Positions 11,070 through 16,263 of a stretch of 64,000 nt of DNA are shown here, piece after piece (position 1 is the first letter of the stretch; the number at the start of each line of letters is the position of its first letter). A program made the translations under genes and the position numbers. The notes beneath the pieces were generated by a model that worked only from the letters and a program-made list of their open reading frames with translations, was not told where the DNA came from and searched no databases. Source of the stretch: a virus (taxonomy: Duplodnaviria; Caudoviricetes); the IMG/VR virus record IMGVR_UViG_3300021256_000089, positions 1-64,000 of that record; one strand, 5' to 3'.

Positions 11070-12464
11070 ATGAGTGAGCACTGCGGCTACATTGTCCGCA
11101 TCGATACACTTCGCAAGCACTCGAACGCTGACAGGCTGCAGGTTGCCACGATCTTCGGCAATGATACGATTGTCAGTCTCGATGTGCACCCCGGAGATAT
11201 CGGGGTTTATTTCCCTTCCGATCTGCAGCTGTCGGAAGAATTTTGCAAGGTAAACGATCTTGTCCGCAGAAAGGACGAGAACGGCAAGGAATGCGGCGGG
11301 TATCTTGACCCCGTCAAACGCAACGTGCGGGCCATCAACCTGCGCGGTGAAAAGAGCGACGGCATTTACCTGCCGCTTTCCTGCCTGTCTGCGTTCGGAG
11401 ACGTTGACACGCTTGCTATCGGCAAAACAATCGACGTCTGGAACGGTCATGAGATCTGCTGCAAATATATTCCGCGCAGCAATCCGACAGCTGTGGCTAA
11501 AACAGCTCATCCTGTCAAGGCGAAGCGGAATATTGCGCCGACTTTCTACGAGCACGTGGATACGGAGCAGCTGAACTACAATCTTCTTGCTTTCCGGCAA
11601 GGAGACGAGATTGAGCTGACTCTGAAGATGCATGGCACTTCTCAGCGTACCGGGTATCTGCCTCTGATCAGAGAGAAAAAGCGTACTCTGCTTGACAGGC
11701 TTCTGCGCAGACCGGAGAAGACGTACACAGAATACGGATATATCACCGGCACACGCAGAACTGTGCTTGATCCTGACAGAAACACCAATACAGATGGCTT
11801 CTACAAGGACATGGATTTCCGCGATGCTATGGCCAAGAAATTCGAAGGCAAACTGCACAAGGGTGAAACTGTCTATTATGAGATTGTTGGTTTCCAGGGG
11901 CCGAACGGTGCTCCGATCATGGCCACGTGTCAGAATTCTAAAATAAAGGACAAGGAATTCGAACGCACGTACGGCAAGGAGACTGTCTTCAACTACGGCT
12001 GCGACCCGACAGGCGACTATGTGCCACGTCCGACAGAGAATCTCAGCAATCAAACAATCTTTGTTGCGCCGTGCTGTGATGTGTACGTGTACCGGATGAC
12101 GATGGTCAACGAGGACGGCGATGTCGTTGAGTATACGCCGGATTTTGCACGTTACCGATGCGAACAGATGGGCGTCAAACATGTCATGATGTTTGAACGT
12201 TTCTTTATCCCGGTTGATTGTGACGTTGATCCCGGTAATTACGTGAAGGAAAAGGCCGAGCAGTATTTTGACGGCCCTGACCCGATTGGCAGGACGCATG
12301 TGCGCGAAGGTGTCGTCGCCCGCATTGTCAATCGTCCTGTATTCACGGCTTACAAGACCAAAAACTGGTCGTTCAAGGTGCTTGAAAACATTGTCAAGGA
12401 TATGTCCGATGTGCCGGACATGGAAGAGGCTCAAGACTTGATCAATGAGGAGACACAGGAATGA
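11070..12464 (+). CDS. ATP-dependent RNA ligase (Rnl2/DRB0094-like) with N-terminal OB-type domain
   Basis: N-terminal KHSNADRLQ...RAINLRGEKSDG; adenylation motif TLKMHGT; YYEIVG, VYVYRM, REGVV, YKTK motifs. Confidence 0.88.
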   Translation: MSEHCGYIVRIDTLRKHSNADRLQVATIFGNDTIVSLDVHPGDIGVYFPSDLQLSEEFCKVNDLVRRKDENGKECGGYLDPVKRNVRAINLRGEKSDGIYLPLSCLSAFGDVDTLAIGKTIDVWNGHEICCKYIPRSNPTAVAKTAHPVKAKRNIAPTFYEHVDTEQLNYNLLAFRQGDEIELTLKMHGTSQRTGYLPLIREKKRTLLDRLLRRPEKTYTEYGYITGTRRTVLDPDRNTNTDGFYKDMDFRDAMAKKFEGKLHKGETVYYEIVGFQGPNGAPIMATCQNSKIKDKEFERTYGKETVFNYGCDPTGDYVPRPTENLSNQTIFVAPCCDVYVYRMTMVNEDGDVVEYTPDFARYRCEQMGVKHVMMFERFFIPVDCDVDPGNYVKEKAEQYFDGPDPIGRTHVREGVVARIVNRPVFTAYKTKNWSFKVLENIVKDMSDVPDMEEAQDLINEETQE

Positions 12465-12994
12465 AGATTACATCCAAAGAGGCAAACAAGTTCATCAAAA
12501 CCATGAACGAAAAACTAGAAGACCTGATTGAGCAGGACAAGCGTGATTCAGTGTATGTGGCGGCCATCGAGGAAGATCCGATGGACGTCCGTCCTGATTA
12601 TGATTTCTCGGAAAACGCCGACAAAGAGAAGACGATCATGAAACATCTCGCGATCGTGAAGCATGCGCTCAATCAGTTCAATCAGACGCACAAGATCAGT
12701 CCGGATGAAGAGTACACGATCGATCAGGTACTGGTTATGATGCCGATCCTCTCGCGTCAGATCGGGCTCTATCGTGAAATGATGAAGTTGCCAGAGAAGG
12801 CAAGAGCGAACGATCGATACCATTCGAACCCGCATATCGAATACAATTATACCAACTTCGATCGCGGTGAGCTCCTTGACTCTTATGATACGGCCAAGGA
12901 ACAGCTTGAAAAATGGCAGCTTCAGCTTGACAGGATCAATTCGACAGTTGAAGAGATCGATATTCCGGATGAAATCGTATTAGCTTATACTTAA
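12461..12994 (+). CDS. Conserved Firmicute-type coiled-coil protein (DIP1984/DUF6847-like from memory, unverified)
   Basis: MKITSKEANKFIK...EDPMDVRPDYDF...VKHALNQFN...TIDQVLVMMPIL...QLQLDRINST; ATGA overlap with the RNA ligase. Confidence 0.75.
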   Translation: MKITSKEANKFIKTMNEKLEDLIEQDKRDSVYVAAIEEDPMDVRPDYDFSENADKEKTIMKHLAIVKHALNQFNQTHKISPDEEYTIDQVLVMMPILSRQIGLYREMMKLPEKARANDRYHSNPHIEYNYTNFDRGELLDSYDTAKEQLEKWQLQLDRINSTVEEIDIPDEIVLAYT

Positions 12995-13004
12995 TTTCTT
13001 TCCG

Positions 13005-13185
13005 TCATGCATGTGTTTGTTTTAGAAGCTGATTGTTTAGCGTTCGTTGTTTGATGTTGTTCGCTTTGTTATCAGTTATCGCCCCTTTGTGTTTAATGTT
13101 CTGGGGTCAAACATGATTCTGAGTGCATGTATGTAAAAGCCTGCGCGTTGCGCACTCCGTCCCGAGGCACGGTTTCAGGAGCGGA
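13005..13185 (+). ncRNA. Putative structured RNA with 7-nt periodic GYTNNNN array
   Basis: Closing helices CATGCA/TGCATG and TGTTTG/CAAACA, hairpin GCCCC/GGGGT, heptads at 13028-13067, 3' multiloop CCTG/CAGG. Confidence 0.6.
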
Positions 13186-13189
13186 ACAA

Positions 13190-13260
13190 TGAGGTGTGGC
13201 CAAGCGGTAAGGCACGGGACTTTGACTCCTGAATCGAAGGTTCAACTCCTTCCACCTCAG
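13190..13260 (+). tRNA. tRNA-Gln(TTG)
   Basis: TGAGGTG/CACCTCA acceptor, CTTTGAC loop, TTCAACT T-loop; CCA not encoded. Confidence 0.95.
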
Positions 13261-13265
13261 CTTTG

Positions 13266-13657
13266 CGGGTAGCCAAGCATTAAAAGGCGATAAGAAAATA
13301 AGGCTCGTACGGGAGAACACCCGGAGGGGACAACTCCGTGTAGATAGGCCCAATAAATCCTGACAGCAGTCTGCTTGCAGATGATCTGTCAGGTCGGGAT
13401 GCATGCAGAGTAAGTCAGTGTAACTCTCCCAGAGATGCGTGTGATTGACGCCGTAAGCGCTTACGGCTACTGCACACCCCGCATGTAAAAAACCTGCGCA
13501 GCGGACCAGTGCTTGGACGCCATGGTACAACAGGCCAGCCACCTGATCGAGGCCGTGGTAGAAGATCTCCGGCAACGCTTGCGCTGTCTCCAAGGTTGAC
13601 GTTCCGTCCTCTTGAGAGAGGGAGTTGGCTGCCCGAGAGGTCGGTTTGGCGGAGACA
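13266..13657 (+). ncRNA. Putative large ornate ncRNA between tRNAs
   Basis: 11-bp closing helix 13266-13276/13625-13635, many internal stems, possible 7-bp pseudoknot 13585-13591/13651-13657; no ORF with an RBS. Confidence 0.7.
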
Positions 13658-13660
13658 CAT

Positions 13661-13729
13661 GATCCCGTAGCTCAATTGGCGAGAGACGCGACTACATGCG
13701 GAATGACGGTTCGATTCCGTCCGGGATCA
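13661..13729 (+). tRNA. tRNA-like element with shortened anticodon arm (pseudo-tRNA or mimic)
   Basis: GATCCCG/CGGGATC acceptor, GACGG-TTCGATT-CCGTC T arm; anticodon arm is only 4 bp plus the 6-nt loop ACTACA. Confidence 0.65.
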
Positions 13730-13745
13730 CTAAAAGAAAAGGAGA

Positions 13746-13946
13746 TTGTTTCATATGATCAAGGAAGAGTATTTGAAAATGATAGCCGGTGACGACACGA
13801 TCAAACTCCTGGAATCTATTCATTCGTACTTCTATGGCTGTTTTCAGAACGCAGCTCGTGGAAGCGAAGCAGAGGAAAGATTCCATAATTGGATGCGTGC
13901 AATAGAGAATATAGAAAGGGCAATCAAAGAGGATGCGACCGATTGA
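13746..13946 (+). CDS. Hypothetical protein
   Basis: AAAGGAGA before TTG; coupled to the next gene. Confidence 0.65.
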   Translation: MFHMIKEEYLKMIAGDDTIKLLESIHSYFYGCFQNAARGSEAEERFHNWMRAIENIERAIKEDATD

Positions 13947-15438: not shown

Positions 15439-15455
15439 TTTAAGTAACCGAAATT

Positions 15456-15528
15456 GCTATCATAGCTCAATGGTGAGAGCAGTGGCCTTATAAGCCAAAG
15501 GTTCCCGGTTCGAATCCGGGTGATAGTA
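15456..15528 (+). tRNA. tRNA-Ile(TAT)
   Basis: GCTATCA/TGATAGT acceptor, anticodon loop CTTATAA, TTCGAAT. Confidence 0.9.
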
Positions 15529-15529
15529 T

Positions 15530-15612
15530 GTTGGCATGGCGGAATCGGCAGACGCTGCGGACTTAAAATCCGCTGCAATTATTGCGTGTGGGTTCGAGTC
15601 CCACTGCCAGCA
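15530..15612 (+). tRNA. tRNA-Leu(TAA)
   Basis: GTTGGCA/TGCCAGC, loop CTTAAAA, long variable arm. Confidence 0.95.
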
Positions 15613-15634
15613 CTAAAAGACCATCCTGGACTAC

Positions 15635-15708
15635 CCGGGTATAGCGAAGCTTGGTATCGTGTCTGGTTCGGGACCAGAAGACCGCAGGTTCAAATCCTGC
15701 TGCCCGGA
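15635..15708 (+). tRNA. tRNA-Pro(CGG)
   Basis: CCGGGTA/TGCCCGG, TCTGG-TTCGGGA-CCAGA. Confidence 0.93.
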
Positions 15709-15714
15709 CACTAT

Positions 15715-15790
15715 GGGGTCGTAGCTCAATTGGTAGAGCGCCTGCTTTGCAAGCAGGACGCAGAGGGTTCAAATCCCTTCGATTCCACCA
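15715..15790 (+). tRNA. tRNA-Ala(TGC)
   Basis: GGGGTCG/CGATTCC with G3:U70, loop TTTGCAA, encoded CCA. Confidence 0.97.
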
Positions 15791-15894
15791 GACGCCGAGA
15801 GGATGACTGGGCGACGGCACTAAGAGGAGTCATGACCTCATCGCTTTCCCGAGATTCTGACAGCATCGACTCGTTAACATGAAGCTGTGTGCAC

Positions 15895-15967
15895 GATCCA
15901 TTGGCGCAGTTGGTAGCGCATGGCACTTTTAATGCCGGGGCCGTGGGTTCGAGTCCCACATGGATCA
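15895..15967 (+). tRNA. tRNA-Lys(TTT)
   Basis: GATCCAT/ATGGATC, loop CTTTTAA. Confidence 0.95.
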
Positions 15968-15970
15968 CAC

Positions 15971-16190
15971 ATGCAGGGTCGCGCCCTGCAAGGCTCCCGA
16001 TCCTTACCTTTGTTGACTTCGGAAGGACGAAGCGGCAGCAAGATCGGTATGGCCCTGAAGAGCGGGATGGAAGGAAGTAACACCGTGAATGTCCTTACCC
16101 AAATGCGCATTGTCCTTACTCGATGCGTATTGGAAGATGTGGAAGTGGTGTGCCAAACCCGAGTACGGTGATGAACGTGTAGGGGTCATA
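15971..16190 (+). ncRNA. Putative structured RNA with three TCCTTAC copies
   Basis: Stems TGCAGGG/CCCTGCA, CCGATC/GATCGG, CACCGTG/TACGGTG, AATGCGCAT/ATGCGTATT; fills the gap between tRNA-Lys and tRNA-Thr. Confidence 0.5.
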
Positions 16191-16191
16191 T

Positions 16192-16263
16192 GCCGGAGTA
16201 GCTCAATGGCAGAGCGGCTGATTTGTAATCAGCAGGCTGAGAGTTCGAGTCTCTCCTCCGGCT
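16192..16263 (+). tRNA. tRNA-Thr(TGT)
   Basis: GCCGGAG/CTCCGGC, GCTGA-TTTGTAA-TCAGC. Confidence 0.96.

Follow-up and report, generated by a model that had tools for sequence, protein, structure and literature searches.

The non-coding locus

The 64,000-nt stretch of viral DNA analysed here (the window) comes from a rumen/gut-type phage of the Caudoviricetes and makes up the first 64 kb of IMG/VR virus record IMGVR_UViG_3300021256_000089, which is 81.5 kb long (estimated completeness 67%). All on the plus strand, genes for a Clp-type protease, a dUTPase, an RNA ligase and a 177-aa protein are followed by a non-coding block of 760 nt, then by a series of small genes and an array of six tRNAs. 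The block consists of a 195-nt leader, a tRNA-Gln(UUG), a 399-nt candidate structured RNA and a tRNA-like element. Natural haplotypes of the candidate RNA vary in a way that preserves a two-domain fold on the plus strand, and we lean towards regarding it as a phage RNA of a new family, whose ends would be made by tRNA-processing enzymes.

12995–13189, plus strand: T/G-rich non-coding leader, 195 nt, between the 177-aa gene and tRNA-Gln; ~95–100% identical among haplotypes
13190–13261, plus strand: tRNA-Gln (UUG) with no encoded CCA (ARAGORN; Rfam, 65.6 bits)
13262–13660, plus strand: candidate structured RNA, 399 nt, from the end of tRNA-Gln to the start of the tRNA-like element
13661–13729, plus strand: tRNA-like element with no encoded CCA and a cloverleaf fold (Rfam tRNA model RF00005, 38.7 bits against a gathering threshold of 29)

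A sequence-only reading had described an ornate RNA at this site, cut out by two flanking tRNAs, and its coordinates, sequences and tRNA-flanked position are correct. Taken between its neighbours, the candidate RNA starts 0 nt after the tRNA-Gln discriminator and ends 0 nt before the tRNA-like element; counted from the helix that could close it (see below), the distances are 5 nt and 3 nt. The region has no coding capacity: stop codons interrupt all three plus-strand frames, and the sole long frame over it is antisense (13093–13593). Its G+C content (0.52–0.60) exceeds that of the flanking genes (0.42–0.50) and is similar to that of the tRNA array. No sigma-70-like promoter was found on the plus strand of the leader and no terminator between the candidate RNA and the 63-aa gene downstream. 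The RNA lies in the operon with neither a promoter nor a terminator of its own.

A two-domain consensus fold

Haplotypes of the locus were gathered from metagenome contigs through exact look-ups of neighbouring proteins and their 90% clusters. This gave six: the window sequence (shared by L045, L046, L058, L061 and L064), L063, L047, L065, L048 (shared by L049 and L060) and L069. The five beyond the window are 84–99% identical to it over the candidate RNA region. RNAalifold folds the six into two domains with 110 base pairs, three of which are changed on both sides, and with three branch points in domain 1 and two in domain 2.

13264–13483, plus strand: domain 1, with helix P1 (UGCGGG/CCCGCA) closing a multi-branch core
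13311–13316 (GGGAGA) with 13425–13430 (UCUCCC), plus strand: long-range helix P3, in which pair 13313:13428 is G–C, G·U or A–U across haplotypes
13343–13403, plus strand: dispensable arm of 61 nt, including the CCUGACAG hairpin with a G(CUUG)C tetraloop
13450–13467, plus strand: perfect palindrome of 18 nt, folding into a hairpin of 7 bp and a GCGC loop, invariant except for U–A to U·G in L063
13484–13493, plus strand: A-rich linker between the domains, with indels and substitutions at 13486–13488
13494–13654, plus strand: domain 2, highly conserved in sequence, with a long irregular helix (13566–13590/13616–13638)

The consensus fold of domain 1 is the single-sequence minimum free energy (MFE) structure of L065; its core is common to the fold of L047, where it is near-MFE, and it lies 3–8 kcal/mol above the MFE of the others. 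Besides P1 and P3, the domain holds a hairpin (CGGAG/CUCCG), a helix (GUGUG/CACAC) that encloses the palindromic hairpin, and a stem (UGUA/UGCA, 13339–13342/13404–13407) that carries the long CCUGACAG arm. In L065, L048 and L049, the whole 61-nt arm is substituted by UUCGC, a 5-nt loop placed exactly atop the UGUA/UGCA stem, and in these arm-less haplotypes the stem itself changes from U·G to C–G. In domain 2, compensatory changes occur at 13569:13635 (C–G to U–A, in L069) and at 13599:13607 (A–U to G–C, in L048).

The sequence-only reading had proposed a different global architecture, closed end to end by an 11-bp helix.

13266–13276, plus strand: 5′ strand of the closing helix, with its partner at 13625–13635; invariant except for G13635A in L069

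All ten helices of that reading form in the window, and across haplotypes 97% of their cells are paired; the 18-nt palindrome is also present as described. One of the stems, AGAGT/ACTCT, does not hold up: it is broken in three of the six haplotypes, and the covarying helix P3 takes the same 3′ bases. The proposed structure has no double changes among the six haplotypes, and the two-domain architecture with its covarying P3 fits the variation better.

The closing helix itself is a competitive alternative rather than the best fold. None of 200 dinucleotide shuffles produced an 11-bp helix with at most one G–U pair that joins the first 25 and the last 45 nt, and 7% produced one anywhere. Enforcing the helix gives an MFE of −138.9 kcal/mol against −142.9 kcal/mol for the free fold, with an ensemble probability of ~0.08; at the level of the consensus, the energy is −106.1 with the helix and −107.7 in the two-domain fold, and the core of domain 1 is unchanged. 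The compensatory change at 13569:13635 favours local pairing of the helix's 3′ strand, while A13636U in L065 would lengthen the closing helix by one G·U pair. The strands of the closing helix and those of a pseudoknot also put forward in the sequence-only reading (TGTCTCC/GGAGACA) are almost invariant among the six haplotypes, and the variation is therefore uninformative on either; no pseudoknot is backed by it. The two-domain and closed folds may be alternative states.

Tests of structural constraint

Six haplotypes are too small a set for R-scape. Column-shuffle z-scores were set aside, since shuffling destroys native hairpins and thereby inflates them. In their place we used a mutation re-placement null, in which the window sequence and the pattern of mutation sharing are kept, the mutations are moved to random columns and the alignment is refolded; it was built to allow for the fact that RNAalifold derives its structure from the very variation under test.

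Under this null, the whole RNA on the plus strand stands out in three measures. Its consensus energy of −107.7 compares with −96.8 ± 3.8 (reached in 0 of 60 re-placements), its 4 broken pairs with 12.7 expected (0 of 60) and its 3 compensatory pairs with 0.30 expected (1 of 60). On the minus strand the signal is weaker: there are no compensatory pairs, 7 pairs are broken, and 6 of 60 re-placements reach the energy. Domain 1 alone has no broken pairs where 5.9 are expected (1 of 150), and domain 2 alone has 2 compensatory pairs where 0.08 are expected (0 of 150). In a separate count of pair changes, the three double-changed pairs compare with 0.8 ± 0.7 in shuffles (7 of 500) and with 0 in all six slid controls. 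We read the evidence for selection on the plus-strand fold as real but thin, firm for the core of domain 1 and weaker for domain 2.

The flanking tRNA-Gln and the tRNA-like element

The two neighbours of the candidate RNA vary in opposite ways. In tRNA-Gln, the anticodon loop is invariant and the anticodon stem carries compensatory changes in L047 and L069 (13215/13231, C–G to U–A; 13216:13230, G·U to A–U). In the tRNA-like element, the loop differs in four of the six haplotypes (ACUACA, AUUACA, ACUAUA and ACUGUA), and the stem below it is weakened in L048. Four of the five variable sites of the element fall inside this 14-nt vestigial anticodon arm (hypergeometric p = 0.005), and the acceptor, D and T arms are invariant except for one change in the D loop.

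The fold of the element features a 7-bp acceptor stem, a D arm with GG, a 5-bp T arm with UUCGAUU and a discriminator A. Its ‘anticodon’ arm measures 14 nt instead of 17 and can be drawn as a 3-bp stem with an 8-nt loop or as 4 bp with 6 nt. The element lacks the 5-bp anticodon stem, 7-nt loop and conserved anticodon of a canonical tRNA, and it has the acceptor/D/T cloverleaf at a score above 29 bits. That score comes from ‘evalue’ mode, and the Rfam alignment leaves a stretch of the anticodon arm unaligned (13 nt for 18 model positions); ARAGORN makes no call for the element.

The acceptor stem, the T arm and the D/T elbow are the features read by RNase P, RNase Z and the CCA-adding enzyme, and in Firmicutes, tRNA precursors that lack CCA are processed via RNase Z. 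Given that the anticodon arm has decayed and that the enzyme-read parts have been kept, the tRNA-like element is most likely a processing handle rather than a decoder.

An origin of the element as a copied 3′ half of a host tRNA, or as an attP remnant, was also considered and is ruled out: its 3′ half is without a match in 185,579 species genomes and is therefore not a copied host tRNA end.

Comparison with catalogued RNA families

At gathering thresholds, Rfam 15 returned only tRNAs across the whole window. With the cutoff relaxed to E ≤ 10, for spans of 1.1 kb and 411 nt around the candidate RNA, the only alignment inside it was a chance-level one to Clostridiales-1 (RF01699). This full-length alignment scores 13.4 bits against a gathering threshold of 48 (E 2.4–6.5), contains many non-canonical pairs and draws most of its score from a hairpin that is deleted in three natural haplotypes. 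Neither ROOL, GOLLD, tmRNA, RNase P, group I or II introns, riboswitches, T-box, 6S nor SRP was found in the candidate RNA (Rfam at E ≤ 10; ARAGORN for tmRNA). The ROOL model (RF03087), for which membership takes at least 99.1 bits and on which the relatives described below score 300–337 bits, had no match at E ≤ 1 across the whole 81.5-kb record. The GOLLD model, whose members typically exceed 800 nt and share a conserved 3′ domain, had no match in the all-family scans. The candidate RNA falls outside all catalogued families. Of the two options left by the sequence-only reading, a minimal member of GOLLD or ROOL finds no support, no large-RNA family scoring here, and a new class of tRNA-flanked phage RNA gains support from the lack of any Rfam match at E ≤ 10, from the fold-preserving plus-strand substitutions in the six haplotypes and from the ROOL genes that related phages have in tRNA arrays.

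Searches for homologues ended at the lineage itself. Beyond similarity to tRNA-Gln, nucleotide searches retrieved nothing from the INPHARED phages, five related IMG/VR genomes or 40 loci around RNA ligase homologues. Exact 20–22-mers of the candidate RNA and of the tRNA-like element had no matches in viral contig and genome contig collections (IMG/VR, GTDB), and covariance models of domain 1 and domain 2 matched only the window among five related phage genomes and 35 loci. Distant homologues of a 106-aa neighbour protein lie in unrelated contexts without the candidate RNA. The homologue and covariation analysis thus gave three compensatory pairs within the six haplotypes and no relative outside the lineage.

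Related phages carry ROOL

RNA ligase homologues at ~60% identity lead to 130–175-kb AT-rich phages, some in IMG/VR and others in rumen and gut metagenomes. ROOL is present in three of five such genomes and in several metagenome contigs, at 300–337 bits. ROOL and GOLLD are phage and prophage RNAs that are often found near tRNA islands, have no known function and form RNA-only cages (PMC5737381; 10.1101/2024.12.08.627333).

L008, 2628–3202: ROOL in a related phage contig, 1.8–2.4 kb upstream of the ligase gene
L015, 106–677: ROOL in a related phage contig, 1.8–2.4 kb upstream of the ligase gene
L019, 512–1086: ROOL in a related phage contig, 1.8–2.4 kb upstream of the ligase gene
L020, 3628–4202: ROOL in a related phage contig, 1.8–2.4 kb upstream of the ligase gene
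L067, 1501–2091: ROOL in the tRNA array of a related phage, 19 nt ahead of tRNA-Arg
L068, 1501–2080: ROOL in the tRNA array of a related phage, 8 nt ahead of tRNA-Leu

In the last two genomes, ROOL shares the layout of the candidate RNA, with a tRNA following closely. The earlier suggestion that a position within phage tRNA arrays recalls GOLLD and ROOL is in line with this finding. The candidate RNA is itself phage-borne, non-coding and directly adjacent to tRNAs, and on these features it would belong to a known kind, the large folded RNAs of phage tRNA islands.

Two further observations concern the relatives. An abiF RNA motif (RF03085, 41.1 bits against a gathering threshold of 37) lies at L008:2358–2394, ~230 nt upstream of ROOL; it could be a mimic, carried by the phage, of an abortive-infection RNA. 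Matches of 112–117 nt to the tRNA model (47–53 bits) occur at L008:10340–10456, L015:8560–8676, L019:5248–5359 and L019:8022–8138; these may be tRNAs with insertions or introns.

Genomic neighbourhood

11070–12464, plus strand: RNA ligase gene, upstream of the candidate RNA (phrog_968, E 1e-61; weak match to the PHA02142 OB-fold domain)
12461–12994, plus strand: gene of a 177-aa protein with unassigned function, whose start overlaps the RNA ligase stop

The 177-aa protein has no Pfam or PHROG match and, by sequence, only one near-identical cluster at the 90% level. Its neighbours in the ESM Atlas are hypothetical proteins of ~169 aa from Bacillota and phages, some with DUF6847 (feature score 0.96, TM 0.86–0.88). 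On the other side of the block, the 63-aa gene at 13755 has a good ribosome-binding site (13742–13748) that begins 13 nt past the tRNA-like element. The six-tRNA array lies downstream of the small-gene run, at 15455–16263, and contains a further gap of ~220 nt (15969–16191) between tRNA-Lys and tRNA-Thr. A few genes downstream of the locus, haplotype L047 carries an HNH_3 endonuclease gene (L047:3648–4061), which is not among the called genes in the fetched stretches of the other close relatives.

Independent metagenome assemblies break at or near the non-coding block (L048:1, L049:1, L066:1, L070:4208 and L071:4342). Two of the contigs start at window positions 13264 and 13270 and one at 13549, and two end ~40 nt short of the stop codon of the 177-aa gene, a pattern that points to heterogeneity between strains, or to recombination, at this site.

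Proposed origin and maturation of the RNA

The reading that we favour, with a confidence only somewhat better than even, is that the locus encodes a lineage-restricted, two-domain structured non-coding RNA of ~400 nt, belonging to a new phage family of the GOLLD/ROOL kind and predicted to be released by tRNA-processing enzymes. Beyond the conserved folding, we infer its transcription, cleavage sites and stability from the layout of the locus. The RNA would share a transcript with the tRNAs and the RNA ligase operon. RNase Z, or another enzyme of equivalent activity, is predicted to cut after the discriminator of the CCA-less tRNA-Gln and to generate a 5′ end near 13262, and RNase P to cut where the tRNA-like element begins and to leave a 3′ end at 13660, with the element acting as a processing handle, much as mascRNA does for MALAT1. 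The product, 399 nt long, would carry a phosphate at its 5′ end and a hydroxyl at its 3′ end. As to its role, our guess is that during infection the freed RNA works in trans, in the same capacity as ROOL and GOLLD in sister phages, whatever that may be. No internal splint for circularisation by the adjacent RNA ligase was seen, on inspection by eye only.

A bolder version of this scheme, which seems to us possible yet doubtful, would make the locus a purpose-built RNA cassette: a decayed tRNA kept only as an RNase P handle, forming a prokaryotic counterpart of the MALAT1–mascRNA pair, next to an ornate RNA of ~400 nt that fills the role of ROOL and possibly self-associates via the palindromic hairpin at 13450–13467.

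A number of results weigh against a selected RNA of its own family. Only six closely related haplotypes are available (84–100% identity), with a mosaic or recombinant look, and the covariation therefore rests on three pairs and perhaps on few independent events. The candidate RNA is no more conserved than neighbouring coding DNA, and it has no homologue outside the lineage in nucleotide, k-mer and covariance-model searches. The whole-RNA MFE has a z-score of −1.8, 150-nt sliding-window z-scores are ordinary on both strands, and variable sites are not enriched at unpaired positions of the window-only ensemble (p = 0.18). Four domain 2 pairs are broken in one or two haplotypes, the consensus energy of domain 2 is no better than the re-placement null, and the two global folds, two-domain and closed, are nearly equal in energy.

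Some of these points would equally suit a structured spacer of the tRNA precursor, whose fold aids processing or protects the flanking tRNAs or the downstream mRNA, and which is degraded after excision and has no role in trans. Such a spacer would show the same structure-preserving variation, would be embedded in an operon without a promoter or terminator of its own, could have a narrow distribution and need be no more conserved than the neighbouring genes. For that purpose, however, an RNA of 400 nt that has a multi-branch core and its own tRNA-like handle appears excessive, the other spacers in the tRNA array of this phage measuring 0–228 nt, and related phages put a bona fide large RNA, ROOL, in their tRNA arrays; we regard the spacer as a serious but rather unlikely explanation. 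Still less probable is a neutral non-coding filler, in which helices and a few compensatory changes would arise from chance, G+C richness and haplotype recombination. The modest MFE z-score, the ensemble test, the mosaic ancestry of the six haplotypes and the energy of domain 2 are what such a filler would give, but chance does not readily account for a plus strand that beats the re-placement null in energy, broken pairs and compensatory pairs, for an arm replaced exactly at the base of its helix, for an end-to-end 11-bp helix absent from all 200 shuffles, or for a G+C content raised as in tRNAs.

The remaining explanations concern what the sequence might otherwise encode. A cis-acting leader or regulator of the small genes from the 63-aa gene at 13755 onward would lie where the candidate RNA lies, upstream on the same strand, with a good ribosome-binding site ahead of the gene and no terminator in between; we think this very improbable, as a complete predicted substrate of RNase P and RNase Z intervenes and would sever the RNA from the mRNA, and no riboswitch or leader family matches. 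That a catalogued RNA such as ROOL, GOLLD or Clostridiales-1 is present here in diverged or minimal form has little to commend it beyond the ROOL genes of the relatives and the weak full-length Clostridiales-1 alignment, and we give it next to no weight: neither ROOL nor GOLLD matches at E ≤ 10 in the 411-nt search, the ROOL model finds nothing at E ≤ 1 genome-wide, and the Clostridiales-1 score stays far below its gathering threshold, with its main scoring hairpin deleted in three haplotypes. Protein coding is about as implausible. A 25-codon plus-strand frame (13522–13599) reads as an amphipathic peptide and the antisense frame is open for at least 166 codons, but no ribosome-binding site precedes 13522, four of five codon changes in that frame are non-synonymous and L048 and L047 have lost or shifted its stop, while the antisense frame crosses tRNA-Gln, runs opposite to all neighbouring genes and has no Pfam match.

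The function of ROOL and GOLLD, abundant phage RNAs that form cages, is not known, and if the cassette scheme were true, this locus would add a third and much smaller model for probing the role of such RNAs. An RNA of 400 nt with a naturally dispensable 61-nt arm would be easier to dissect than either. Since relatives carry ROOL and this phage has an unrelated, smaller folded RNA beside its tRNAs, the comparison suggests that these phages need the niche to be filled and not a particular RNA to fill it. A tRNA-like element that serves purely as a cutting signal would, if true, provide a clear bacterial-virus case of long non-coding RNA maturation that depends on tRNA enzymes.

Comparison with known systems

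ROOL resembles the candidate RNA in being phage-encoded, non-coding and multi-junction and in lying in or beside tRNA islands, and it was first found in rumen data (PMC5737381; 10.1101/2024.12.08.627333). In contrast to the ~400 nt of the candidate RNA, ROOL measures ~580 nt, and the two show no detectable match in sequence or structure; ROOL is found in three phyla, whereas the candidate RNA is confined to one narrow lineage. GOLLD offers a parallel in its two-domain layout with a linker, its presence in phage tRNA arrays and its lack of a known function (10.1101/2024.12.08.627333). It is twice as long, and its tRNAs sit in the linker, whereas those of the candidate RNA are placed at both ends.

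For the predicted 3′ end, the closest parallel comes from eukaryotes. Wilusz and colleagues reportedly found in 2008 that the 3′ end of MALAT1 and MEN-beta is formed by an RNase P cut at the 5′ end of the tRNA-like mascRNA. Both there and here, a long non-coding RNA is directly followed on its 3′ side by a tRNA-like element whose anticodon arm is abnormal. The likeness is one of analogy, between a eukaryotic and a bacterial/phage system: no triple-helix 3′ end is evident in the candidate RNA, and its cleavage is a prediction. Among phages, the tRNA cluster of T4 encodes stable ‘species 1 and 2’ RNAs (rnaC and rnaD) of ~120–140 nt, with no known function. These are shorter than the ~400 nt of the candidate RNA, and a sequence relation is not expected. 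They are non-tRNA RNAs that are transcribed together with phage tRNAs and freed by the enzymes of tRNA processing, which is the route predicted for the candidate RNA.

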